IMG/VR virus record: IMGVR_UViG_3300025435_000010
Span: 1-64,000 of that record
Source of the DNA: a virus
Length of the DNA: 64,000 bases
Direction: 5' to 3' (one strand)
Part shown: in pieces, positions 1 to 13,684 of the stretch
Layout: each line of letters begins with the position of its first letter
How positions within the stretch are numbered: the first letter of the stretch is position 1
Position numbers and translations under genes: made by a program
Notes under the pieces: model-generated
Database searches by the model: none
The model's input: the letters and a program-made list of their open reading frames with translations, nothing else
What the model was told of the DNA's origin: nothing

Positions 1-154
1 GTCAGAGTTTGCTATTCAGGATACTGACCCTGGTCACTTTGATACTGATCCTAAGCCTTGTACAAAGATTATCTTTGATAACTGTAACTTAGATGCTATC
101 ATTCATGCTCTCTTAATTTATCAGGATAATCTTAAGTCTATTAACAATCAATAA
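1..154 (+). CDS. 3' end of a hypothetical protein (partial)
   Basis: Open frame from base 2 (SEFAIQDTDPG...NNQ*) ending TAA at 154, 1 nt before the next ATG. Confidence 0.6.
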   Translation, partial: SEFAIQDTDPGHFDTDPKPCTKIIFDNCNLDAIIHALLIYQDNLKSINNQ

Positions 155-155
155 T

Positions 156-380
156 ATGAAAGTAAAAGAACTAATCGAGAAGCTTCAGAAGTTTGACTCA
201 GAGCTTGAAGTCTATGTAGATGGTTACGAGGGAGGTTATGATACCCCTCAAGAACCTTTTCAATCTCCTATGAAGCTAAATGTACACAGTAAAGAGTTTT
301 GGTATTATGGATTACATGAGCTTCATAGAGTAACGGATAATGGTCAACCTGATGCCGAAGCTATAATCATTTCTAGGTAA
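156..380 (+). CDS. Small phage protein, MKVKELIEKLQ family
   Basis: ORF track; N-terminus typical of a widespread small phage family; similar starts at 5946 and 8271. Confidence 0.75.
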   Translation: MKVKELIEKLQKFDSELEVYVDGYEGGYDTPQEPFQSPMKLNVHSKEFWYYGLHELHRVTDNGQPDAEAIIISR

Positions 381-2912: not shown

Positions 2913-2995
2913 ACAAAAATATTATAGATACTTAAAAAGTTATCAAGCAGAAAATTCTGCTTGTGGTTCCTATTTGTTTGAGCCATAATAATAGT

Positions 2996-3466
2996 ATGAA
3001 AAATAAAAACAACGTCAACGATATTATTCTAACTTTTACTAATACTGGAAAGCTTCCGACAAAGTATATTACCTGTACAAAGTGTAACGCCGAAGTTACA
3101 GCCTTTGGAAGTAACCTTGAAGGTAAGATTAAGAAGTTCGGAACTCTCTTTAATCTTCTTACAACTTTTGAGTGCCGGAAGTGTGTGTCAGCTTCCAAAC
3201 CTAAGAAGGAGAAGAAGATCTCTGTTCGGATTATGAAGCGGGAGAAGAAAGAGGAGATTAAGAACTATGAGATTCCTAAGATGAAGTGGAGTATCCCGCG
3301 GAACGTTTTTCTTAAAGACGCTCCTGATCTTATCGAGGATCATACAAAGCATAGTTGCGCTGCTCCTCAGCTCTTTCTCAACAACGGACGGAATTGCGAT
3401 GGATGCGCTTTTTGGAATAACTGTCAGTGTCCGATTAAGACTGCTAACGAATTTGCTGCAAAATAA
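2996..3466 (+). CDS. Early Cys-rich (Zn-binding) protein, paralog of 12296
   Basis: Start corrected to the promoter-linked ATG (MKNKNN); CTKC, CRKC, CDGC motifs. Confidence 0.75.
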   Translation: MKNKNNVNDIILTFTNTGKLPTKYITCTKCNAEVTAFGSNLEGKIKKFGTLFNLLTTFECRKCVSASKPKKEKKISVRIMKREKKEEIKNYEIPKMKWSIPRNVFLKDAPDLIEDHTKHSCAAPQLFLNNGRNCDGCAFWNNCQCPIKTANEFAAK

Positions 3467-3467
3467 T

Positions 3468-3629
3468 ATGCAATACAAACTCGCTTATTTTATTATTTGG
3501 TCCTACAGACTTCTCTTTAAGGTAGGTACATACGATCATTATAGGCTTACGTACTTACTTGAGGATATTAACGAAGAAGAGTATCGTTATAGTATTTCTA
3601 AACTTCTAAATAGAACCTGGGACATTTAA
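3468..3629 (+). CDS. Hypothetical protein
   Basis: ATG 1 nt after the upstream stop. Confidence 0.55.
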   Translation: MQYKLAYFIIWSYRLLFKVGTYDHYRLTYLLEDINEEEYRYSISKLLNRTWDI

Positions 3630-3630
3630 T

Positions 3631-4017
3631 ATGAACAGATACAAAGTATATATTGCTAAACTAAAGAGAACAAATACTATTCCCCGTGTTGTTCTAAAGA
3701 TAGGCATTACATCCTCTTCGGATGCTATGGATAGGCTTACTTACAAGGGAGCTGATGAATTATATCCTATTTCCAATTACTTTTCTGATATTAAGATTAT
3801 GAAAACATCTCAGAGAATTTACTCTAAAGAAGAGGCAGAGAGTATTGAAGCCTATATTATGCAAAGTATTAAGGGATCTGATTTATATTTTCATAATTGG
3901 AGAGAACCAGATCAAATCTCTGGTATTACAGAGATGCGTACTTGGAACTACGATGAGTTTCTCAAGGCAGTAGATCTACTAAAACAAGCTTGTAGTTCCC
4001 AGCCTGTTCATACATAA
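3631..4017 (+). CDS. GIY-YIG-superfamily-like protein (T5orf172/MUG113-like)
   Basis: YKVYI...LKIGITS...DRL and a downstream E..E motif. Confidence 0.55.
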   Translation: MNRYKVYIAKLKRTNTIPRVVLKIGITSSSDAMDRLTYKGADELYPISNYFSDIKIMKTSQRIYSKEEAESIEAYIMQSIKGSDLYFHNWREPDQISGITEMRTWNYDEFLKAVDLLKQACSSQPVHT

Positions 4018-4036
4018 TCCTTTTATCAATTAAATT

Positions 4037-4369
4037 ATGGGTGCGTACATCTACAGACTAAAAGGAACAAAAGCTTTTGAAGAGCTTACTATTGAAGGTA
4101 AGAAGGAAAAGGTCTACGATTACGTTTACTGGTACAAGCCCTATTACACAGGTCTTTACGAGAAGGAACCTAAATGGATGAAGCCTATTAAGATGCTTGA
4201 TGCCAGACTCCGTAAGGCTTTTGAGAAGGTCGAGCCTGTCAAGTGGGTTCGTCATGTTAATGAAGGGGGCGTTAAGGATGACGAGATCATTGAATGGCCT
4301 GGTGGTATTTGTATTAGTGATTACAACGAGCGTTATCAGACTGCTCGGAGAATTTCGATTAAAAAATAA
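4037..4369 (+). CDS. Early hypothetical protein
   Basis: ORF downstream of the repeat promoter at 3990. Confidence 0.75.
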   Translation: MGAYIYRLKGTKAFEELTIEGKKEKVYDYVYWYKPYYTGLYEKEPKWMKPIKMLDARLRKAFEKVEPVKWVRHVNEGGVKDDEIIEWPGGICISDYNERYQTARRISIKK

Positions 4370-4370
4370 T

Positions 4371-4790
4371 ATGTTAAAGAGAGATAATTGGACTACAGCT
4401 GAAGCAATCAACATTATTAAAGGTGGGACAATTGCATGGTGTAGTGAAGGTGGAGACATAGAAGACAATCCAGACTATTACGCAAACCTTGATCGTAACA
4501 AAGGTATCTATAAAGTTATTGAGAGTGTTAAAGGGTGGGATAGGGAGATTTGGACTAATGACGAATTGATTGAATTTCTTGATGAAGCAAAAATTCGTGT
4601 CAAGATGGATGATGCAAAAACTTGGTCCAAAGCTGAATATGACTCTGTAGTAGAGTACAATCATGGTCTTGAATGTAGTATTATTCAACTCTGGGATCTT
4701 AAAGCAAATCCAGAAGAGTCTTATAGTGCTATGGCTTTAGATACAGAGACAGGACAAATTGTAGTTATCAGTTCACCGCTTCCTCAATAA
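4371..4790 (+). CDS. Early hypothetical protein
   Basis: Start corrected to MLKRDNW, 1 nt after the upstream stop. Confidence 0.7.
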   Translation: MLKRDNWTTAEAINIIKGGTIAWCSEGGDIEDNPDYYANLDRNKGIYKVIESVKGWDREIWTNDELIEFLDEAKIRVKMDDAKTWSKAEYDSVVEYNHGLECSIIQLWDLKANPEESYSAMALDTETGQIVVISSPLPQ

Positions 4791-4870
4791 TCTTCTTGCA
4801 CTATTCAGCTCGTTCATACATAATACTTGTATGAAGAATAAATCAACCCTAACCCCAACTAAGTAACCCC

Positions 4871-5044
4871 ATGTCAACATACTCAAAAATTATTGCTTTT
4901 ACCTCGTTCTTTAACATCCTATTCTGTACCTTTGAACTCGGTCGGATCTCAGCAGGTGGTCAAATGTCCTTGCTTTCAACTCTTATCATTGCTGTAATCT
5001 CTATAGCTTCAATGGTCGATGCCTTCTCTACTCCATCAAAGTAA
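4871..5044 (+). CDS. Small two-helix membrane protein
   Basis: Hand translation MSTYSKIIAFTSFFNILF...LIIAVISIASMVDAFSTPSK*. Confidence 0.6.
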   Translation: MSTYSKIIAFTSFFNILFCTFELGRISAGGQMSLLSTLIIAVISIASMVDAFSTPSK

Positions 5045-5045
5045 T

Positions 5046-5216
5046 ATGGAACCAACACTACTAACCGAAACTATAGATCCTAATAAATGTGTAGGAGCTG
5101 TACATGATTGTAAGAATCCTGCTACCTGCTCCGTTAATCATCGTACTCTTGGTGATATAAGAGTATGTGAAGCCTGTAAAGTTATTGTAGAGAATCTAAA
5201 CTATGAATCTAACTGA
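5046..5216 (+). CDS. Small Cys-rich protein
   Basis: C..C...C...CEAC; start MEPTLL directly after the upstream stop. Confidence 0.6.
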   Translation: MEPTLLTETIDPNKCVGAVHDCKNPATCSVNHRTLGDIRVCEACKVIVENLNYESN

Positions 5217-5454
5217 ACCAACTCTCCGTAGATCGGAGTTTCGTAAACTATTAAACATTCGTTGCTGTAATGAATTTGGGCTAGGTTTAATGGATCTTCC
5301 TGATATTATCTGTATTGATGATGTTTATTGGGAGGGTATTACTCTCAAAGAAGCTAATCAAATGATTGATGGATGTATAGATGATATTAAGGACGAGCTT
5401 GGATATACTACTGTACATACGGTTAACGCACCTGTTTACGATATAAACGAATAA
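5203..5454 (+). CDS. Early hypothetical protein
   Basis: ORF track, operon packing. Confidence 0.65.
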   Translation: MNLTEPTLRRSEFRKLLNIRCCNEFGLGLMDLPDIICIDDVYWEGITLKEANQMIDGCIDDIKDELGYTTVHTVNAPVYDINE

Positions 5455-5457
5455 ACT

Positions 5458-5679
5458 ATGAGGACAATTAAACTAAAGGCAACTATCAACTACACTGTTA
5501 ATATCGAACAGATTGTTGAAGTCTCTGAAGAGGATAATCGTAATACACTTCATGAGAAGGCAAAAGAACTAGCTCTAATTGGCATTGAGTCTAATCCTAA
5601 TGTCAGTAGTGAGGTGAGGGAGCTGTACATTGCTGATATCGATTCTGAAGGTAATCCTATTGTCTGGGTTCGACCATAA
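5458..5679 (+). CDS. Early hypothetical protein
   Basis: ORF track, operon packing. Confidence 0.65.
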   Translation: MRTIKLKATINYTVNIEQIVEVSEEDNRNTLHEKAKELALIGIESNPNVSSEVRELYIADIDSEGNPIVWVRP

Positions 5680-5719
5680 TAGGCTTGCTACTTCCTTAAA
5701 ATCTATCTATACTAATAGT

Positions 5720-5944
5720 ATGGAAAATAAGACATATACAAAGAAGCAAATCAACAACTACAAGAATTACGAGATCATTCGTAAGTCTGGAGCATATAAT
5801 ATGTTCTCCTCTCAAGCTCGGCTCTCTACAGGATTAACTAAAGATGAGTATCTATTTGTAATGGAGAACTATAAAGAGCTTAAAGATGTTGCTGCAAGCT
5901 TTGATGCTGATAACTATCTTCTCAAACAAGTAGATCATAACTAA
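5720..5944 (+). CDS. Early protein, DUF5049-like (IRKSGAYNMF)
   Basis: Leaderless start MENKT after the repeat promoter; IRxSGxxNMF motif. Confidence 0.65.
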   Translation: MENKTYTKKQINNYKNYEIIRKSGAYNMFSSQARLSTGLTKDEYLFVMENYKELKDVAASFDADNYLLKQVDHN

Positions 5945-5945
5945 T

Positions 5946-6134
5946 ATGACATACCAAGATCTCATAGATAAGATTCATCTTCTTGGATGTTACAAAGATC
6001 CAGTTAAGCTCATGTCTATGCATACCAATGATGTGTTTAAGATTTCTACTTGGCATGAAGCGAAAGAAAATATACCATATGAAGATATTGAGAAAGATCA
6101 AATTATCTTTGATATTGAACTAAACAACTACTAA
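5946..6134 (+). CDS. Early hypothetical protein
   Basis: ORF track. Confidence 0.65.
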   Translation: MTYQDLIDKIHLLGCYKDPVKLMSMHTNDVFKISTWHEAKENIPYEDIEKDQIIFDIELNNY

Positions 6135-6277
6135 CATTTTATAAACGATCTAGAAATAGAATGCAAGGAGAGCTTGCTCGGGTCTTTTTTAACATAAAAG
6201 TTAATTTTATTAACCTCATTGAACATCTAGATTGTTTTTTTCTTGTTGATTCCTAAAACTAAAGCCATAATAAGCGT

Positions 6278-6430
6278 ATGAAAAATGAAATACCAGAACA
6301 AGTAAAAGCTGAAATCGAAGCTCTCTATATGGAGATTGAAGGCCTAAAGGAGGTCGTTAATAACAATAAAGCTGTTCTTCATGATTTAATTGAAATTCTC
6401 AAGAACGTAAAAATTCCCTATCATGCTTAA
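6278..6430 (+). CDS. Early 50-aa coiled-coil protein
   Basis: Leaderless MKNEIPEQ... after the promoter at 6243. Confidence 0.65.
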   Translation: MKNEIPEQVKAEIEALYMEIEGLKEVVNNNKAVLHDLIEILKNVKIPYHA

Positions 6431-6635
6431 TCTACAGCCATACGTTGATAAGGTCTGGGCTGCTTCAGACCGAGAGGAGAAGATTAAAGCTCTTACGGAG
6501 ATGGTTAATGCTTCTACAGCTAAGAAACTCACAAAGATTAAAACCCTCCGTGATATGGTTCACATGAGCAATACTCAGTTAGATTTTCTAGCGAGTAACT
6601 ATTCAATGTCTGGAATGGGTATGAAGGTTATTTAA
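6423..6635 (+). CDS. Early hypothetical protein
   Basis: ORF track. Confidence 0.7.
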   Translation: MLNLQPYVDKVWAASDREEKIKALTEMVNASTAKKLTKIKTLRDMVHMSNTQLDFLASNYSMSGMGMKVI

Positions 6636-6855
6636 GATGATTAAATACCTATGTGCAGGAACAACCTAAGGTAGAACAACTTATAAGCATACTTGAGCAG
6701 ATAGGAAAACCTCCGCTCGTAATCATAGATATTCTATCTAACATAATTAAACAACAAATGATGTATGGAGGTTCTTTAGAAGATAAACTTCAATATCATA
6801 TTGAAACAAATAAAAAAAGCTTGTAACTTCCGATAGAAGCATTCATAATGAATGT

Positions 6856-7050
6856 ATGAAAAATAAAGATACAGAAATTGTTGCTGAATACATTCACGAT
6901 CTTATCATCGAGCATGATGGTAAGGATATTGATACTGCTATCTTTGGCGGTGAAGAATGGATGGTAAAGATGTCAGCTCTTGATCATTCCGCTGTTACTC
7001 TCTCCGGAGGTGAAGGGCGAGTGTTTAGGATTACAGTTGAGGAGATTTAA
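6856..7050 (+). CDS. Early cassette protein (MKNKD)
   Basis: Repeat promoter 6 nt upstream. Confidence 0.8.
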   Translation: MKNKDTEIVAEYIHDLIIEHDGKDIDTAIFGGEEWMVKMSALDHSAVTLSGGEGRVFRITVEEI

Positions 7051-7051
7051 T

Positions 7052-7330
7052 ATGTACCGCAGATCATTTAAGCACAAGTATTGGTATCCGATATCAGTAG
7101 ACATTGAGAGAACTTTGCGGAAGTTTCGCAGACTTGTAGATCGAACTTATCGAAAGATCTGGCCTTATATTTTTACTGCTTTTATTCTCTTCTGGCTTTT
7201 TATTGCCTATACACGAATGAAGTATGATTACTCACTCATTCATAATTACGCTAATCTTGATACTCCTTTCTCTGACTACTATACAAAGTGGAACACAGAA
7301 GGTAAGCCTGGACAGGACCCTCCAAAGTAA
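7052..7330 (+). CDS. Early membrane protein
   Basis: Start MYRRSF after the upstream stop; one TM helix. Confidence 0.65.
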   Translation: MYRRSFKHKYWYPISVDIERTLRKFRRLVDRTYRKIWPYIFTAFILFWLFIAYTRMKYDYSLIHNYANLDTPFSDYYTKWNTEGKPGQDPPK

Positions 7331-7368
7331 TTCTTGTAATTCCTTTTCGATTTCTTTATACTGAATGT

Positions 7369-7587
7369 ATGAAAATTGAAACTGACGAAGACATGGTAAC
7401 TACTGATGATATTGTTGAAACTCTCATGGATGCGTATGAAGGATATGCAGACATCAATGATATGAACGCTAAGATTCAAGGAACGTTTGAGGGTCTAGGT
7501 TACCTCACTCGAAATAAAGGATTCACTATTAGGGTTGGTTCTAGGCCTAATGTTCAGGAGTTTCAAGTCACAGTAACACCTCGTTAA
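7369..7587 (+). CDS. Early cassette protein
   Basis: Repeat promoter; TFEGLGYLTRNKGF motif. Confidence 0.8.
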   Translation: MKIETDEDMVTTDDIVETLMDAYEGYADINDMNAKIQGTFEGLGYLTRNKGFTIRVGSRPNVQEFQVTVTPR

Positions 7588-7588
7588 T

Positions 7589-7756
7589 ATGACTGAAAAG
7601 ACATTTGAAAAGAAGCACAAACTTCTCTGGTCTCAATATAAGAAGGCTTACACAAAGTCGATTAAACAACAGCAAAAAGCTGACCTTCTTAGGGATGAAG
7701 CTAATAAACTTCACGTCAAAGTCTGGGAGTTAGAAGCGAAATTTGCCAATCAATAA
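7589..7756 (+). CDS. Early 55-aa helical protein
   Basis: Hand translation MTEKTFEKKHK...EAKFANQ*; fills the gap between cassettes. Confidence 0.6.
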   Translation: MTEKTFEKKHKLLWSQYKKAYTKSIKQQQKADLLRDEANKLHVKVWELEAKFANQ

Positions 7757-7793
7757 GCTTGAAATTCCTATAGGATTTCTTTATCATAAGAGT

Positions 7794-7982
7794 ATGAAAA
7801 ATAAAAACGAAGAGTTCATCAGTTGGATTGCCGATTACTTGCATGAGTTGGAATACAAGTACTCTGAGACTTCAGCAGATAGAGAGAAGTTTCTACTAGT
7901 TAATGAGATTTCTGATACCATTAACGAGAAGTATAGTGAGATGGTTCTAGGTCTTCCGTCAGAGTCTGAAGAAGAAGCTTGA
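7794..7982 (+). CDS. Early cassette protein (MKNKN)
   Basis: Repeat promoter; its TGA stop is part of the next -35 box. Confidence 0.8.
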   Translation: MKNKNEEFISWIADYLHELEYKYSETSADREKFLLVNEISDTINEKYSEMVLGLPSESEEEA

Positions 7983-8013
7983 AATTCCTAAGGGATTACC
8001 TTATACTGGTAGT

Positions 8014-8265
8014 ATGAAAATTAAGGCATACGAATACAAACAAATGACAGAGGAAGAGCGTTCGATGACTCTCTTCTATACGATCGAGGGAATGGTTGAA
8101 TCTCTTCAAATTATTGGAAATGAGTTAGATACTGAATCTTCGACTGGATGTTCACGCCTAGCTCTTATCTCTGAACTTGAAGAGAAAATTGAAGCCCTTT
8201 ACTCTAGAGTTCACAAGGACTTTGTAGATAACAAAACCAAAAATACAATCACCTACTCCATCTAA
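8014..8265 (+). CDS. Early cassette protein
   Basis: Repeat promoter. Confidence 0.8.
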   Translation: MKIKAYEYKQMTEEERSMTLFYTIEGMVESLQIIGNELDTESSTGCSRLALISELEEKIEALYSRVHKDFVDNKTKNTITYSI

Positions 8266-8270
8266 AACAT

Positions 8271-8462
8271 ATGACATACAAAGAACTAATCGAAGAACTG
8301 CAGAAGATTCCAGCAGATAGACTTGGAGATACAATTACTGTATACGATCCGGATAGGGATGACTATTGTGGGGTTAATCATATGTCAGTAGCCCTAGATA
8401 ATAACAACGATGTATTGGATGAAGGACATGCCTATTTGGTTCTTCGTTCATATGGATTCTAA
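8271..8462 (+). CDS. Small phage protein (MTYKELIEELQ family)
   Basis: Similar N-terminus to 156..380. Confidence 0.7.
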   Translation: MTYKELIEELQKIPADRLGDTITVYDPDRDDYCGVNHMSVALDNNNDVLDEGHAYLVLRSYGF

Positions 8463-8533
8463 CATGAACGAAGACTTTGATGGACTAGGTCTTTAGACTT
8501 GAAATTCCTTTTTGATTCCTTTATACTAATAGT

Positions 8534-8800
8534 ATGAAAAAAGCTAAGATTGAGGATGTACTCAATACAATCTCCGAACTTAGTAGAAGGAGGGAAGAAG
8601 GAGACAATCCTTACCGTAAAGTAAACGAACTTCAATCTATTATAGGAAGTACATTAAATGGTGTATATCCTAGCCTTCAGGAAGCTATTAACATTAGATA
8701 CAAGAAGATTAAAGAAGAAGTTGATGGACTAAAACCTATTCGTAAACCTTTTAGTAGCGGGATGGAGGATGAGATGCTCGTAAGAGAGTATGATTGGTAA
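8534..8800 (+). CDS. Early cassette protein
   Basis: Repeat promoter. Confidence 0.8.
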   Translation: MKKAKIEDVLNTISELSRRREEGDNPYRKVNELQSIIGSTLNGVYPSLQEAINIRYKKIKEEVDGLKPIRKPFSSGMEDEMLVREYDW

Positions 8801-8844
8801 TAGTAAAGCTTGAATTCCTAATAGAATTCCCATATACTCATAGT

Positions 8845-9096
8845 ATGAAAAATAACAACGACGTTACACACAATTGTAAGAGTGAACTAGTTCTCTGGTT
8901 GGATAACGATCCGTTCTTTCACCAGGAATGGAGAACGACTATTAGAACAGGTAACCTCACATATATTAAAGATGCATTTGAGGAGGCGGGATTTAAGTAC
9001 AGGAAAGATCAGTGGGAAGAGGTAGTGGATCAATTTGAATTTGAACTGAAGGAAGAGGAAGAAAGATTAGATTCCTATTGCAGTATCCTTCAATAG
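8845..9096 (+). CDS. Early cassette protein (MKNNN)
   Basis: Repeat promoter; ELVLWLDND motif. Confidence 0.8.
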   Translation: MKNNNDVTHNCKSELVLWLDNDPFFHQEWRTTIRTGNLTYIKDAFEEAGFKYRKDQWEEVVDQFEFELKEEEERLDSYCSILQ

Positions 9097-9112
9097 CCTG
9101 TATACTAATAGT

Positions 9113-9322
9113 ATGAAAAATAAAGCAACCCTGAAGTCCGACGGCTGGTATATTATCTTTGTTAATGGTGTGGAGGAAGAGCTCCATCTAGCAGCTAACA
9201 CCAATCTTTTCATCTTTGACGAAGAACATGATGGGGAGGGACATGTTGATATGTATCACTGTGAATCTGATGAATTTCAAGGCTCTATTTCACTTGAGCC
9301 TCATCAACTAATTCTAGCTTGA
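9113..9322 (+). CDS. Early acidic cassette protein
   Basis: Repeat promoter. Confidence 0.8.
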   Translation: MKNKATLKSDGWYIIFVNGVEEELHLAANTNLFIFDEEHDGEGHVDMYHCESDEFQGSISLEPHQLILA

Positions 9323-9353
9323 AATTCCTTTAAGATTCCATCATAATAATAGT

Positions 9354-9545
9354 ATGAAAAATAAGAACACATCAGTAAACGAATACTACGAGAACGTAAC
9401 AACGGCTGCTAAGGTCCTGGAGGAGTACTACGGGAGGCTAACGAAGTTCACTTCTAGTGAAGAGCGAAAGAAGGAGTATAATACCTTTAGACGTGAGATG
9501 AGAGATTTGTGGAAGACTCATGCGTCGTACGCCTTAGAACAATAA
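9354..9545 (+). CDS. Early cassette protein (MKNKN)
   Basis: Repeat promoter. Confidence 0.8.
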   Translation: MKNKNTSVNEYYENVTTAAKVLEEYYGRLTKFTSSEERKKEYNTFRREMRDLWKTHASYALEQ

Positions 9546-9582
9546 GCTTGAAATTCCTTTTGAATTCCTTTATACTGATAGT

Positions 9583-9834
9583 ATGAAAAATAAGAACACC
9601 CTAGTAAAAGAATACTTCTTCGGATATGATTTGAAGAATGTTAAAGCAGTTCAAGACTATGTTCAAAAGACATATAAGGACGAAGTAGATTATGAGATGT
9701 ATGTTGGGTATGGAGACGATGTAATGAACGCTCTAGAAGTCTATAACGAGAGTCTTACTAAGGATATAACATTCCTAGGGCTAGTAAATGAATGCGAAGG
9801 AAGAGGAGAGTTTGAAAGCGAAGACGAGGAATAA
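9583..9834 (+). CDS. Early acidic cassette protein (MKNKN)
   Basis: Repeat promoter. Confidence 0.8.
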   Translation: MKNKNTLVKEYFFGYDLKNVKAVQDYVQKTYKDEVDYEMYVGYGDDVMNALEVYNESLTKDITFLGLVNECEGRGEFESEDEE

Positions 9835-9871
9835 GCTTTAAGTTCCAATCAAATTACAATATACTAATAGT

Positions 9872-10093
9872 ATGAAAATTAACGGATACAAGAAAGAGTT
9901 CATGAAAGTAGTAACCTATAGAGTTGAAGACGTCCCGGGTGTAGGAACAGTTATGTATTCAGATTACTACGATGATAACGATAAGATTGTAGATAGTATT
10001 ATGAGAACGGAGGAAGGGTATACAATTGAAGTACCATCAGTTCTAGAAGAAGTTCAGAACTTTATTGATGAAGAGATGAACGTAAAGATCTAA
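9872..10093 (+). CDS. Early acidic cassette protein
   Basis: Repeat promoter. Confidence 0.8.
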   Translation: MKINGYKKEFMKVVTYRVEDVPGVGTVMYSDYYDDNDKIVDSIMRTEEGYTIEVPSVLEEVQNFIDEEMNVKI

Positions 10094-10099
10094 ACAAAC

Positions 10100-10354
10100 A
10101 TGGAATACAAATTGATTCAATACAAGGATAAGGATCTAGATCTCTTCAATAAAGAGGTTAACGAGTTACTAAAAGATAATTGGAAACTCGAAGGAGACTA
10201 TAGGATTACAACCATTAAGTCAAAGGTAGTAGATAGCTATCTTATCTATAGTCAGGTACTAACTAAGGAAGAAGAGAAGAAAGCTCTAGGATTTAACGTA
10301 CATCTATTAGAGGAAGAGAATAAAAACATAGAGAAAAAGAAGAAAAAGAGTTAG
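10100..10354 (+). CDS. DUF1737-like small protein
   Basis: YKLI...F.KEVNELL.D.WKL.G...YSQ pattern. Confidence 0.6.
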   Translation: MEYKLIQYKDKDLDLFNKEVNELLKDNWKLEGDYRITTIKSKVVDSYLIYSQVLTKEEEKKALGFNVHLLEEENKNIEKKKKKS

Positions 10355-10780
10355 TTTTTACTAAAAAGAAAAGAAAAGACTAAGAAAGTTAGTCTAGACT
10401 AACATTTAAGTACGAGGAAAGGTAACAATAAGTCGTAGAAGTTCAAACAACGATTAGCCCCGGTTAGTTATTAAAAGCGGGCGGGATTAAAAGAACCCCT
10501 TAGGGAGAACCTGTTGTCCCTAGTCGATAGATAGAGTAGATAGAATATAGAAGGGGATAGAGAAATATAGAAATCCCTAGGAATCTCCAAAGAAAGAGGG
10601 AAAGAGCTGTTAGAGCTTGTTTATAGCCGTTCAAAGCCGTTCGAGCTCGTATAAACTGTAGCACATCCCACCTCCGTTCAGGAACTTCTAGCGTTATCTC
10701 CGAGCTACAAACTGCAACATCTACGGCAAAAACGGTTTCTTCTTGCGTTCCAGCCCAGAAACCCATATACTGTATAGATA

Positions 10781-10993
10781 ATGACGACTACACCCAACTA
10801 CTACGATTGTTTTATTGACTCCGTTCTTAGTCTTCCACCGAAGCTCCGAATGAGCATCCTTAAGGGTGCAGGTACCGGGTGTACGGACAACAACCCCTAT
10901 CTCTACCTCTGGAACCACTATAGTGATCTAGATAGTGAGATCGGTCAATTCCTCCATGCTATTCTAGATGAGTACAACCTTGCCCTTGACTAA
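10781..10993 (+). CDS. Early hypothetical protein
   Basis: Promoter TTGCGT-17-TATACT upstream. Confidence 0.7.
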   Translation: MTTTPNYYDCFIDSVLSLPPKLRMSILKGAGTGCTDNNPYLYLWNHYSDLDSEIGQFLHAILDEYNLALD

Positions 10994-10994
10994 G

Positions 10995-11171
10995 ATGAAG
11001 AAATTTATTAAAAATCCCTATGCTTACTTCCTATCTAAACTCGGATATAAGTACGTTCCTAACTCACCAATTTTAACCTACTTAACTCGATTTTCTAACT
11101 CTACTTACTTTGAAGATAGAATGAATAACAATGACCTAGATAGGTATACTTACAAGCTTTATTCTCTATAG
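10995..11171 (+). CDS. Hypothetical protein
   Basis: Start MKKFIKNP after the upstream stop. Confidence 0.5.
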   Translation: MKKFIKNPYAYFLSKLGYKYVPNSPILTYLTRFSNSTYFEDRMNNNDLDRYTYKLYSL

Positions 11172-11365
11172 TTATTATCCATACTCCTCTAGAAGGTGCT
11201 AGCAGGAACTTTGTTAAGCCGATGTTAAATTAATCAAAGTTCCTGACGTTAGATTGATGTTAGTGCATCTAGGTAGGGTCAGCTAACAAACGTAGCAAAG
11301 TATTACCTTCTCTTCGAGCTGTTTTCCTCTCCTAGGTCCCTGCTCAACGACCTCTTCTTTATTAT

Positions 11366-11402
11366 CCATTCAGTATATAGAGATTCAGAAGGAACTACAA
11401 GC
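11366..11402 (-). promoter_or_regulatory. Inverted copy of the early promoter repeat
   Basis: Minus strand reads gcTTGTAGttccttctgaatctctaTATACTgaatgg. Confidence 0.8.
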
Positions 11403-11458
11403 GGAATCTGAAAAACTTTCCTCTTGAGTTCCTCTGAATGTTCCGCCATAATGAATGT

Positions 11459-11554
11459 ATGAAAAATAAGAACAGCACAACCAAGATCAAGAATCAGAAA
11501 ACCGGAAAATATGTTGATATCAACAAAGTTCCGGTTTCAGCGTTCTTTGAATAG
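11459..11554 (+). CDS. 31-aa cassette peptide (MKNKNSTTK...)
   Basis: Repeat promoter at 11424; hand translation. Confidence 0.6.
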   Translation: MKNKNSTTKIKNQKTGKYVDINKVPVSAFFE

Positions 11555-11591
11555 GCTTGAATGTTTCTAATCCTTCCATCATAATAAAATT

Positions 11592-11858
11592 ATGAAAAAT
11601 ACAATAGAGGAACAGAATTATTCAATTGCAAGCAAAGAGGCTATTAATGCAGGTGATGATGTAGCTTTTTACAGTTTTCAGCTATCTCATCTCACTGAGA
11701 ACTTACCTATTAAAATTGTTTTGAAAAAGATTGGCAATCTTGAAATTCTTAACAAGATTGATAAGGCTAAGAAACAACTTAAACAAGCTGAAAAGCTGCT
11801 AGTTCTTGCTAAAGCCAAAGAGAGAGCAGCTTGGGCAGCTTTGCAAATGCAGGCTTGA
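11592..11858 (+). CDS. Early cassette protein
   Basis: Repeat promoter. Confidence 0.75.
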   Translation: MKNTIEEQNYSIASKEAINAGDDVAFYSFQLSHLTENLPIKIVLKKIGNLEILNKIDKAKKQLKQAEKLLVLAKAKERAAWAALQMQA

Positions 11859-11889
11859 AGTTCCTTTTAGAATCCCTTATACTAATGGT

Positions 11890-12069
11890 ATGAAACTTGA
11901 TAGAATGATTGGCAATTGTACTATGGAAGATGTTGTAGAAGATATCTTTGGAAGCGTTAGTGAGTTCGCCCGCCTTGTAGAAGAGAACGGAGATGAATTT
12001 CTATATAAGAATTCTATAGTTGTCAAATACGACGAAGATAATGATGTTCATTATTTCTTCGAGCTTTAA
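11890..12069 (+). CDS. Early acidic cassette protein
   Basis: Start corrected to MKLDR after the repeat promoter. Confidence 0.75.
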   Translation: MKLDRMIGNCTMEDVVEDIFGSVSEFARLVEENGDEFLYKNSIVVKYDEDNDVHYFFEL

Positions 12070-12107
12070 GCCTTGAAGTTCCAACCAAAATCAAATATAC
12101 TAATAGT

Positions 12108-12215
12108 ATGAAAAATAAGAACATCGTAACTAACCCAATCAACCTTCCCTTCCTCTTTGCTACGACTTTGATTGTAGTGATTAACGTAATAGCGTTCGCT
12201 TTGATGCCTCGATAA
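12108..12215 (+). CDS. 35-aa membrane peptide, paralog of 13277
   Basis: MKNKNIVTNPINLPFLFATTLIVVINVIAFALMPR*. Confidence 0.75.
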   Translation: MKNKNIVTNPINLPFLFATTLIVVINVIAFALMPR

Positions 12216-12295
12216 AAGGCTTGAGGTTCCTTTAAAGATCAGACATAATAGAAGAGTAGAATAAGTCAAACAACAACAACCAACAACAAACTAAA

Positions 12296-12640
12296 ATGAA
12301 CAAAAATACAACCCCAATTGAAGTCATCGAGTATCTTACTAACTACTTCGAGACGTTTGGCAACTTGCCTGTTCCAGTCATCGAATGCCAGGCTTCAGGT
12401 ACTGCCTTCACCTGCTTCGGAACTAACCTCAAAAATAAGATTGAGAAGTTCGGCGGAATTAAGGAGCTTCTTACCACGTTTACTGGACGTGGAGTAGTGA
12501 AGAAGACTACGACTAAGGTCGAGGTTAAGGAGGAGACTCCAACTACTGTAGAGGCAACGATCACTAAGCGTTCACGTCCTAGCCGTTCGAAGGCTGCAAT
12601 TGCCGAGCGTCAAGCAGCTCAGGTCGAAGTCCAAGCCTAA
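12296..12640 (+). CDS. Early protein, paralog of 2996
   Basis: Shared FG(S/T)NL..KI.KFG....LLTTF motif. Confidence 0.8.
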   Translation: MNKNTTPIEVIEYLTNYFETFGNLPVPVIECQASGTAFTCFGTNLKNKIEKFGGIKELLTTFTGRGVVKKTTTKVEVKEETPTTVEATITKRSRPSRSKAAIAERQAAQVEVQA

Positions 12641-12666
12641 AACCTAACCCATTAACATATACTAAT

Positions 12667-12888
12667 ATGAAGATTGATTATCGTAAAGGCCCGATGGCTA
12701 AGTCACCAAAGCTTGCCAACATTCTCCACGACTTAACAATTGGTGAGACGTTTGTAACTTCAAATCCTGATGCCCGAAGGATGGCAAACTCCCTCTCCAG
12801 GGCTTCAAAGAAGTACGGAACCAGACTTACTACACTGTCGTTAGGTAATGGATTTACGCTTGTAGAAGCGATTCGTTACAATAGTTAA
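12667..12888 (+). CDS. Small basic putative DNA-binding protein
   Basis: L.IGETF...A...SR.SKKYG pattern. Confidence 0.65.
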   Translation: MKIDYRKGPMAKSPKLANILHDLTIGETFVTSNPDARRMANSLSRASKKYGTRLTTLSLGNGFTLVEAIRYNS

Positions 12889-12982
12889 TTCAGGCTTGGG
12901 ATAAGGAGGTGGAGGTGTTTTGGCCCTCCACCTCCAAACCTTTCCGCTTGTAGTTCCCTTCAAATTCCCTTATACTAATAGT

Positions 12983-13237
12983 ATGAAAAATAAGAACAAC
13001 GCAATGTACATACTGGCTGGCAACTTGGGTTATGATGGAGATGTTACCTTGGGAGTTTACTCCTCGGAAGCTGGAGCTAAAGAGGCTGCAGTTAACTATG
13101 AGAAGGCTCTAAAGAATGATACGGAGAATGACTTAACTGACTTCAACGGTGAGTATCTGATTACAGTAATGAATTTGGATAATGCTGCAACTGATGAGAA
13201 GTTTTTGAGGTCTTCTAACATTAACTTCAAGCTGTAA
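12983..13237 (+). CDS. Early cassette protein (MKNKNN)
   Basis: Repeat promoter; LGVYSSE..AKEA motif. Confidence 0.8.
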   Translation: MKNKNNAMYILAGNLGYDGDVTLGVYSSEAGAKEAAVNYEKALKNDTENDLTDFNGEYLITVMNLDNAATDEKFLRSSNINFKL

Positions 13238-13276
13238 AGGCTTGACCATCCCCAGAAGTTCCTTTATACTGATTGT

Positions 13277-13384
13277 ATGAAAAATAAGAACAACGTAAAC
13301 AATCCAATCAATCTCTGGATCCTGGCTGCTAGCTCACTAGTGGTTGTAATTAACATAGTAGCTTTTGCTTTGATGCCTAGATAG
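13277..13384 (+). CDS. 35-aa membrane peptide, paralog of 12108
   Basis: MKNKNNVNNPINLWILAASSLVVVINIVAFALMPR*. Confidence 0.75.
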   Translation: MKNKNNVNNPINLWILAASSLVVVINIVAFALMPR

Positions 13385-13426
13385 AAGAGACTTGAAGTTC
13401 CAATCAAATTCCCTTATACTGATAGT

Positions 13427-13684
13427 ATGAAAAATAAGAACAACGTAACGAACAGAACGGTATCAGAGCTTGTAGACCTCATTTGTGAGCTCCAGACAAA
13501 GAAGGGTAATGGAGACTTCAAACATTCATATGCATTGGGTACAGTGCAGGCCATCTTAGATTGGCACGTTAAGGGCTATACAACTGACCTTCAGGGAACG
13601 ATTAACGATTCATATAACAATGTAAAGAAAGAGATGGATACTTTTGAACCGCTAACAGCAGTCACCGACTACCCAACAGACTAA
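13427..13684 (+). CDS. Early cassette protein (MKNKNN)
   Basis: Repeat promoter. Confidence 0.8.
   Translation: MKNKNNVTNRTVSELVDLICELQTKKGNGDFKHSYALGTVQAILDWHVKGYTTDLQGTINDSYNNVKKEMDTFEPLTAVTDYPTD

Follow-up and report, generated by a model that had tools for sequence, protein, structure and literature searches.

Repeated, probably leaderless promoter-plus-start units in a distant T4-like freshwater phage, best read as a variant of PeSL-type cassettes

In T4-type phages, PeSLs (elements that pair an early promoter with a stem-loop) have been described for RB49/phi1, T4/PST and KVP40/nt-1. In the available parts of the two reports, each element combines a strong sigma-70-like early promoter with a stable terminating stem-loop, a Shine-Dalgarno sequence and a start codon, and the elements are concentrated among ORFans of hyperplastic regions, where indels and replacements come about through them and mini-circles can arise from them (PMC2839356; PMC4122927). 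Here we report on an array of short repeated units found at positions 2959-13441, on the + strand, of the first 64,000 nucleotides (nt) of virus record IMGVR_UViG_3300025435_000010. This whole stretch is called the window below. In each unit a promoter-like sequence runs directly into a start codon and the first codons of a gene. The locus is probably an early hyperplastic region of a T4-like phage, built of leaderless promoter-plus-start units that would carry a 15-nt signal and act as recombination patches.

Small early genes behind repeated strong early promoters are also found in the SPO1 host-takeover module and in the T4 internal-protein loci, and in the latter unrelated proteins share a conserved 5′ end. 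Integrons are one-strand rows of small, mostly single-gene, high-turnover cassettes that lack promoters of their own; they rely on the integrase IntI, on attC sites and on a common promoter, Pc. A leaderless phage transcript is that of lambda cI from PRM. Among other phages, leaderless promoters have been reported as PL1, PR2 and PL2 of Cluster O mycobacteriophages in the available part of PMC4351075, and the T4 internal-protein loci are mentioned in the part of PMC2839356 at hand.

The window is the beginning of a single linear contig of 131,144 bp (36% G+C, estimated completeness 60%) from a freshwater-metagenome virus record. The contig encodes a T4-type portal protein gp20 (PF07230, 1.7e-104) and a gp23-type capsid protein (PF07068, 6e-86). 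Its capsid protein shares no more than 32.6% identity with those of cultured phages, with cyanomyoviruses as top matches, and megablast of the array against a phage collection gave no match. On the basis of these two Pfam matches, the low capsid identity and the empty megablast result, the phage is an uncultured, distant T4-like freshwater myovirus.

Units were counted with the strict pattern TT[GT]N3-N17-NAT[AC]NT-N6-ATG. Between 2901 and 13700 there were 21 matches on the + strand and a single one on the − strand, and the remaining 120 kb of the contig had four; in 200 dinucleotide shuffles of the array region the pattern came up 0.08 times on average and never more than twice. The sequence ATGAAAAATAARRA, with at most one mismatch, occurred 14 times in the window (expected 0.59), 12 of them in the array, all on the + strand. 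The repeat and its geometry are plain in silico observations: the predicted promoter repeat fused to a leaderless-type start was recovered with its 17-bp spacer, and the −10 box was separated from the ATG by exactly 6 nt in 19 of 19 array matches when 5-7 nt were permitted. The array holds about 41 open reading frames (ORFs) and a total of 23 units, namely 21 strict ones, one with a leader and one decayed, so that the array of “about 24” cassettes first proposed is real, if slightly smaller. Its proposed period of about 110-1000 bp was roughly right, except for two longer gaps; successive units are 133-1835 bp apart from ATG to ATG. Intergenic DNA consists of little more than the promoter, often with a stop codon followed by GC and the −35 box, and downstream genes are coupled by stop/start junctions of the TAATATG type. 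As had been noticed, some upstream stops are borrowed from the unit: the ORFs ending at 7982, 9322 and 11858 use the TGA of the TTGA at 7979, 9319 and 11855. The proteins led by the units are unrelated, since BLASTP clustering of the 21 unit-led ORFs gave a sole paralogue pair, the 35-aa peptides starting at 12108 and 13277.

Similar arrays exist elsewhere. The exact 23-nt unit core was found at 16 loci on 8 IMG/VR contigs, and four related viral contigs carry one-strand arrays with 13-17 pattern matches each, against 0-1 for reversed-pattern controls. Two further searches were set aside. A 26-nt core had a single match in 596 Gb of bacterial and archaeal genomes, on a Flavobacteriaceae metagenome-assembled contig; we took it as chance, because no unit stood upstream and the pattern counts equalled the reversed control (11/7 against 11/8). 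The looser motif TNNNGTATGAAAAATAARRAC was unspecific in IMG/VR, with true units at 3 of the 30 loci returned. The cyanophage marker psbA (PF00124) was absent from five of five records, and the DUF401-like, host-like protein of the phage had no relative among the genome contigs searched.

An alignment was built from 81 units of five genomes (window 21, G004 18, G002 17, G003 10, G005 15), two regular-expression matches being excluded as unrelated. The consensus reads GC-TTGAAG (−37..−30), a 17-bp spacer, TATACT or CATAAT (−12..−7), rATmGT, and then ATG AAA AAT AAG AAC; 51 of the 81 units have C at −8, as in TATACT. Positions that are near-invariant beyond what the search pattern demanded were, upstream, C-36 (69 of 81), T-28 (73), C-26 (71), A-5 (78), G-2 (79) and T-1 (80), and downstream A at +4..+7 (78-80), T+9 (78), A+10 (73) and A+11 (75). 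In all units the −10 hexamer lies at −12..−7 relative to the A of the ATG. Sigma-70 promoters have this hexamer at −12..−7 as the canonical distance to +1, and by this geometry the mRNAs should begin with AUG. We infer that the units are sigma-70-type promoters whose predicted transcript start is the A of the ATG.

Several properties of the gene starts were compared with this prediction. Shine-Dalgarno-like words preceded 11 of 188 gene starts and occurred in 15 of 188 random 17-mers, which is no enrichment, and the phage as a whole may do without ribosome-binding sites. By prediction the 5′ ends have no structure, with a mean minimum free energy of about −1.7 kcal/mol for +1..+45 compared to about −6.7 inside the same genes, and they were less stable than intragenic windows in 20 of 21 units. 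Folding of −70..−1 of the 21 units revealed no stem-loop (mean z −0.44, 5 of 21 below −2), and terminator-like sites numbered 10 against 8.4 expected, none of which recurs with the units. The TATACT units (for instance 8522-8535) contain a 5-bp inverted repeat, ATACT-nnn-AGTAT, which extends from −11 to +2 over the −10 box and start region. The G at −2 is the same in units with C and in units with A at −8, and nothing in the repeat covaries; the repeat may be an operator or a coincidence. Over the whole contig, leaderless-type geometry is found outside the array too: at 22 of 188 gene starts the ATG stands 5-7 nt behind the end of a late-type (A/T)TAAATA motif, and 15 further starts have a TAnnnT box at −12..−7 (such as 29046, 63632 and 79934 on the + strand, 59400 and 22163 on the − strand).

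The upstream part of the units might alternatively serve a phage-specific factor or polymerase, for which the spacer motifs (TTCC at −29..−26, CC at −16/−15) would be the putative binding site. T-28, C-26, C-16 and C-15 are indeed conserved beyond the needs of sigma-70, and the spacer motif varies by genome, being TTNCCCCCTAAA in G002 and TTCC..ATTCC in the window. However, the −35 box, the 17-bp spacer, the −10 box and +1 fit the primary-sigma consensus unaided, and no candidate factor was identified, which makes this explanation improbable in our eyes.

The conserved part of the unit does not end at the start codon. At codon 2, AAA was found in 74 units and AAG in 2, against a background AAA share of 0.37 in these regions, where AAG is the commoner codon (0.63; p=3e-29). 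When codon 3 encodes Asn it is AAT in 63 cases and AAC in none, and when codon 5 does, it is AAC in 36 cases and AAT in 2, where the background would give AAC a share of 0.37 (p=8e-14). In 14 of the 81 units codon 3 is instead ATT (Ile), a radical change of residue that takes one A-to-T step in the DNA. Conservation of +4..+15 amounted to 0.748 within genomes and 0.757 between genomes, whereas spacer and discriminator were more alike within a genome, by a difference that 0 of 300 label permutations reached. In orthologous cassettes whose coding bodies are 65-78% identical, the start stretch is identical. This nucleotide-level constraint is an in silico observation. From the fixed synonymous codons, the equal conservation within and between genomes and the identical starts of diverged orthologues, we conclude that +1..+15 appears to be held by selection and is not solely carried along by recombination. 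The view that the homology across the start codon is a mere by-product of recombination finds no support in that form, as +1..+15 is held at the nucleotide level and the spacers drift by genome.

A neutral form of that view deserves attention nevertheless: the promoter would be functional, and the identity over the first five codons would be the footprint of crossover or conversion, with no function of its own. Recombination at units is supported by the comparisons given below, and the genome-specific spacer signature is what conversion among copies predicts. Such homogenisation should not, however, leave +4..+15 as conserved between genomes as within them when the adjacent spacer is not, nor keep it identical in orthologues with diverged bodies, nor fix two Asn codons on opposite synonymous codons in five genomes. 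We therefore consider it an unlikely account.

Could the constraint act on the protein? The original prediction had unrelated proteins begin with MKNK(N), and this is correct for a good part of them: MKNK starts 12 and MKNKN 9 of the 21 unit-led ORFs, the others beginning with MKN-, MKI-, MEN-, MKK- or MKL-. Many unrelated small proteins with the same first residues could point to an N-terminal tag for targeting or degradation, and T4 internal proteins do share an N-terminal capsid-targeting sequence. Conservation of MKNKN at the peptide level was not found, though: synonymous codons are fixed, at codons 2 and 5 against background usage, and Ile replaces Asn through one A-to-T change. Moreover, orthologues of families F7, F19 and F21 function untagged as coupled second genes, and five residues are very short for targeting. 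A peptide signal is thus very improbable, and the shared MKNKN start reads as a nucleic-acid signal rather than a peptide.

The signal would fit into the following scheme. The unit would be a promoter for the host primary-sigma RNA polymerase, with +1 at the A of the ATG; the first gene behind each unit would be translated from a leaderless mRNA, and later genes by stop/start coupling, in both cases with no Shine-Dalgarno sequence involved. The first 15 transcribed bases, AUGAAAAAUAAGAAC, would be part of the signal, either as an initial transcribed sequence that aids promoter escape, or as an unstructured A-rich 5′ end that aids leaderless ribosome loading, or both. As there is no leader, the signal must be written in codons, and MKNKN would so be forced on unrelated proteins.

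Another use of the same bases, compatible with the scheme just given, would be a 5′-terminal RNA tag: AUGAAAAAUAAGAAC on early mRNAs would be bound by a phage factor (a repressor, an RNase or an antisense RNA) that times or shuts off the early class. A precedent is RegA of T4, a repressor of many early mRNAs that acts on AU-rich sites surrounding their start codons. Only early-type units have the stretch, which is absent from the other leaderless-type starts of the contig, and the constraint lies at the nucleotide level, both as a tag would have it. Against it, RegA (PF01818) and AsiA (PF09010) had no match in five of five records, though the controls likewise matched nowhere, and no locus elsewhere in the 131-kb fragment is complementary to +1..+15 beyond AT-rich matches with 2-3 mismatches. 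We rate such a tag as rather unlikely.

Comparison with relatives was the next line of evidence. BLASTP clustering of the ORFs of the five arrays gave 37 shared families, of which only 2-10 were common to a given pair of arrays, each with about 47-50 called ORFs. Adjacencies kept with respect to the window were 6 of 7 in G004, 0 of 8 in G002 and 1 of 10 in G005. Both order and content of cassettes, which the original prediction had wanted compared, therefore differ among relatives, and gene order is not identical. The flux of cassettes with junctions in units is likewise observed in silico. With G004, homology covers 9101-9366 of the window (2-267 of G004, 91%) and 9829-10017 (471-659, 85%). 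The first block spans the F20 cassette and the next unit, unit 12 (9317-9368, CATAAT, ATG 9354, family F4, its TTGA being the upstream stop), up to +13, at 9366. Homology restarts at 9829, 8 nt before the F5 unit, unit 14 (9835-9886, −35 box TTTAAG, TATACT, ATG 9872). Between 9366 and 9829 the window has two cassettes and G004 a single, unrelated one.

Metagenome contigs carrying the F3 gene, 12 loci in all, gave events among closer strains. Identity to the window is 97.7-97.9% for L055 over 7783-8503 and for L057 over 7783-9612. Both lack 7349-7782, a cassette of two genes, and have there a single hybrid unit, left of which identity falls to 82%. The missing cassette begins in unit 6 (7332-7383, TATACT, ATG 7369) and ends in unit 7 (7757-7808, TATCAT, ATG 7794); the hybrid agrees with unit 6 in its 5′ part and, in its coding part, with the gene led by unit 7. 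L056, which is equally close to the window, retains this cassette. In L056 and L057, identity stops at the −35 box of unit 13 (9546-9597, TATACT, ATG 9583), where the block that both share with the window at 97.7% ends; beyond it comes another cassette, one of family F25, which G004 also has. A block of about 1.8 kb with six units, bounded on the left by unit 7, is thus about 98% identical between otherwise diverged genomes, with both edges in units. The same deletion joint, 7348 to 7786, was seen in contigs of run X7, with a shorter side of 255 nt and 12 other letters between. A second joint, 7348 to 2981, considered as a moved F1 cassette, was dropped: most joints in that junction survey had a shorter side of only 22-43 nt, and such short sides show only a unit shared with other contigs, not cassette movement. 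In L060 and L066, the F19, F20 and F4 cassettes are permuted, and the ends of the high-scoring segment pairs (HSPs) lie in units.

Units and ORF bodies are separable. Orthologues with or without a unit were found for F5, F7, F19 and F21: F7 is a coupled second gene with no unit in G003 and G005, and so are F19 in G003 and F21 in G005, with a different N-terminus. The −10 class differs between genomes in 5 of the 13 families having at least two unit-led members. In addition, G002 (L019, reverse strand, about 12900) has one unit with a window-type spacer, and G005 (L021, about 9871) one with a G002-type spacer. These foreign-type spacers suggest that units also move between lineages together with their gene. 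An observation of another kind concerns 8534-8557 of the window and 255-275 of G004 (L017), two otherwise unrelated ORFs whose promoters are identical and whose first 8 codons are alike (MKKAKIED and MKNKIED) before the two diverge; the junction may lie about 24 nt inside the coding sequence.

Breakpoints were scored as 120 internal HSP ends from HSPs of at least 150 nt at 16 loci. Fifty-three fell in unit-junction windows, which make up 14.8% of the sequence (p=1e-14 compared to random position), and 31 in coupled-junction windows, which make up 13.2%. For HSPs of at least 80% identity, 24 ends were in unit junctions, 8 in coupled junctions and 3 in the remainder. Junctions thus favour gene boundaries generally, and the preference for units is clear only in recent events. 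As for enzymes, a RecA/UvsX-family gene is located at 79969-81099 of the contig (75 bits). The 131-kb contig, estimated to be 60% complete, yielded neither a tyrosine nor a serine recombinase (PF00589 gave 0 matches; its control was found in 14 of 14 genomes). Homologous recombination on a conserved patch of about 27-50 nt would be an economical mechanism. The conserved stretch of about 27 nt (−6 to +15), with the −35 and −10 boxes, would double as a homology patch for phage RecA/UvsX-type recombination; ORFs or blocks would be inserted, deleted, replaced and reordered with junctions in units, and an ORF joined at a unit would gain a promoter and a start at once.

Several points weigh against our reading of the array as leaderless promoter-plus-start units that double as recombination patches. 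The codon counts are not independent trials, because the units are homologous copies. The A-rich stretch is missing from the late-type and TATAAT-type leaderless starts of this contig, so it would be specific to the early class and no general need of leaderless translation in this host. We infer the start site, the promoter activity and the early timing alike, and the term “host sigma-70-type” goes back to likeness to the general bacterial consensus. With respect to recombination, the excess of unit over coupled junctions is not significant over all relatives (53 against 31, p=0.08), and these HSP ends are not independent, as related loci share events. Because intergenic DNA is the unit alone, any gene-wise mosaicism would put junctions there. 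Finally, the middle part of the L055/L057 hybrid unit is unlike either flanking window unit, so that this event was not a simple crossover between the two copies present. The recombination-driven library of the original prediction is in part sustained: there is flux, and the two best-resolved events among strains of about 98% identity have their resolved ends inside units, but over all relatives the preference for units is weak.

The other units, all on the + strand, are described from left to right. Two tRNA genes, tRNA-Asn(GTT) and tRNA-Gln(TTG), the sole ones of the 131-kb contig, lie at 1934-2100, just 5′ of the array, and the array genes downstream of tRNA-Asn(GTT) begin with two Asn codons. 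Unit 1 (2959-3010, CATAAT, ATG 2996) leads an MKNKN protein of 156 aa from the zinc-ribbon-like family F1. A perfect 8-bp hairpin at 2944-2963, CAAGCAGA AAAT TCTGCTTG, abuts it; read on the − strand the hairpin resembles a terminator, and it closes with the TTG of the −35 box of unit 1. Unit 2 (4794-4845, CATAAT, ATG 4831) leads only an 11-codon mini-ORF, MKNKSTLTPTK, with its stop at 4866, and the next ATG, that of a 57-aa hydrophobic protein, follows 5 nt on at 4871. The mini-ORF may be a starter with re-initiation or a decayed cassette. Unit 3 (5683-5734, TATACT, ATG 5720) starts an F7 protein with MENK. Units 4 (6241-6292, ATG 6278) and 5 (6819-6870, ATG 6856) both have CATAAT. Beyond units 6 and 7, four units share the TATACT box: unit 8 (7977-8028, ATG 8014), whose TTGA is the stop of the upstream ORF, unit 9 (8497-8548, ATG 8534), unit 10 (8808-8859, ATG 8845), which leads F19, and unit 11 (9076-9127, ATG 9113), which leads F20.

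After unit 14 comes the decayed unit (10743-10783), with TTGCGT, 17 bp, TATACT up to 10771, and 9 nt before the ATG of F6 at 10781; in G003 and G005, F6 has a full unit and starts with MKNKN or MQNKN. Unit 15 (11422-11473, CATAAT, ATG 11459) leads a 31-aa ORF, and is followed by unit 16 (11555-11606, CATAAT, ATG 11592) and by unit 17 (11853-11904, TATACT, ATG 11890), which leads F21 and again borrows its TTGA as the upstream stop. Unit 18 (12071-12122, TATACT, ATG 12108) leads a 35-aa hydrophobic peptide. The leader unit (12221-12298) has TTGAGG, 17 bp, CATAAT up to 12249, and a 46-nt leader before the ATG at 12296 of a second form of F1. This leader, 12250-12295, is CAA/ACA-rich and G-poor, and is kept before the orthologues in G004 (two copies) and G005. 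Three TATACT units close the array: unit 19 (12946-12997, ATG 12983), unit 20 (13240-13291, ATG 13277), which leads the paralogue of the 35-aa peptide of unit 18, and unit 21 (13390-13441, ATG 13427), which leads F22. The paralogous peptides, at 12108-12215 and 13277-13384, read MKNKN..VVINxxAFALMPR, have their own unit each, and have close relatives in L011 and G003.

The cassette products are ORFans by the searches made. None of the 41 cassette ORFs had a Pfam match above cut-off and five matched PHROGs of unknown function, so that the units do sit among ORFans; as to their function, which the original prediction had tentatively placed in host takeover or anti-defence, neither Pfam nor PHROGs nor the ESM Atlas offered a usable lead. 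Two non-coding gaps, 10355-10780 and 11172-11423, interrupt the array and are partly kept in G004, G005, L056 and L066. Neither matched Rfam or folded unusually (z −0.61 and −0.26), and the second contains a 15-bp hairpin near 11202-11246.

A broader scenario can be put forward tentatively, as a guess that may well turn out wrong. There could be a clade of T4-like freshwater phages that work without ribosome-binding sites, in which early, TATAAT-type and late ATAAATA promoters all fire at the A of the AUG, and in which the early class is tagged with AUGAAAAAUAAGAAC as a shared handle for expression or shut-off, forcing MKNKN on more than 80 unrelated proteins in five genomes. If so, recombination could join the promoter-plus-tag module to any ORF, as a portable “expression adaptor”.

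How does this array compare with the systems introduced above? A full-text literature search found no paper on leaderless promoter arrays or on a shared MKNKN start in T4-like phages. With integrons, to which the original prediction had likened the locus, it shares the small, mostly single-gene cassettes, their arrangement in a row on one strand and their high turnover. The likeness breaks down on all three defining features tested: no integrase was found, structured sites of the attC kind are absent, and promoters are supplied cassette by cassette instead of by a common Pc. The genes of the SPO1 module and of the T4 internal-protein loci, for their part, have leaders with ribosome-binding sites, and the shared N-terminus of the T4 internal proteins is a peptide signal, whereas the start is held here at the nucleotide level.

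As far as the available part of the report goes, Cluster O mycobacteriophages have few leaderless promoters per genome, with no array of about 20 copies, no shared initial coding sequence and no link to shuffling (PMC4351075). Halovirus HF2 resembles the array in layout, with repeated conserved intergenic promoter units in the early-middle region of a tailed virus, kept among relatives. Yet the HF2 promoters are archaeal, with TATA/BRE elements, the seven class I copies stand at constant positions among relatives, and the part of the report at hand describes no extension of the repeats into coding sequence (PMC8707807).

The closest likeness is to PeSLs. As in the accessible parts of the reports on them, strong sigma-70-like early promoters recur between ORFans, the region is hyperplastic and the genome T4-like, and indel, replacement and reordering junctions between relatives fall in the repeats, for which the phage's own homologous recombination has been proposed. 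In contrast to PeSLs, whose stem-loop is often GGGG..CCCC, the units have no stem-loop or terminator part; they also lack a Shine-Dalgarno sequence, place the ATG at the predicted +1, and extend their conserved sequence 15 nt into the coding region (PMC2839356; PMC4122927). Of the features that define a PeSL, the repeated early promoter, the ORFan context and the junctions in the elements were thus found here, the stem-loop and the Shine-Dalgarno sequence were not. The array is best read as a leaderless variant of PeSL-type cassettes, the shuffling system itself being already known in T4-type phages. Read this way, it would extend the PeSL idea to a distant T4-like branch, by an element that has lost both stem-loop and ribosome-binding site from its make-up and is fused to the start codon. 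It would also be a clean natural case of a transcription or 5′-mRNA signal dictating the first five codons of dozens of unrelated proteins, and the unit, compact at about 52 nt, could be used as a module that supplies promoter and start together where genes are to be expressed with no ribosome-binding site.

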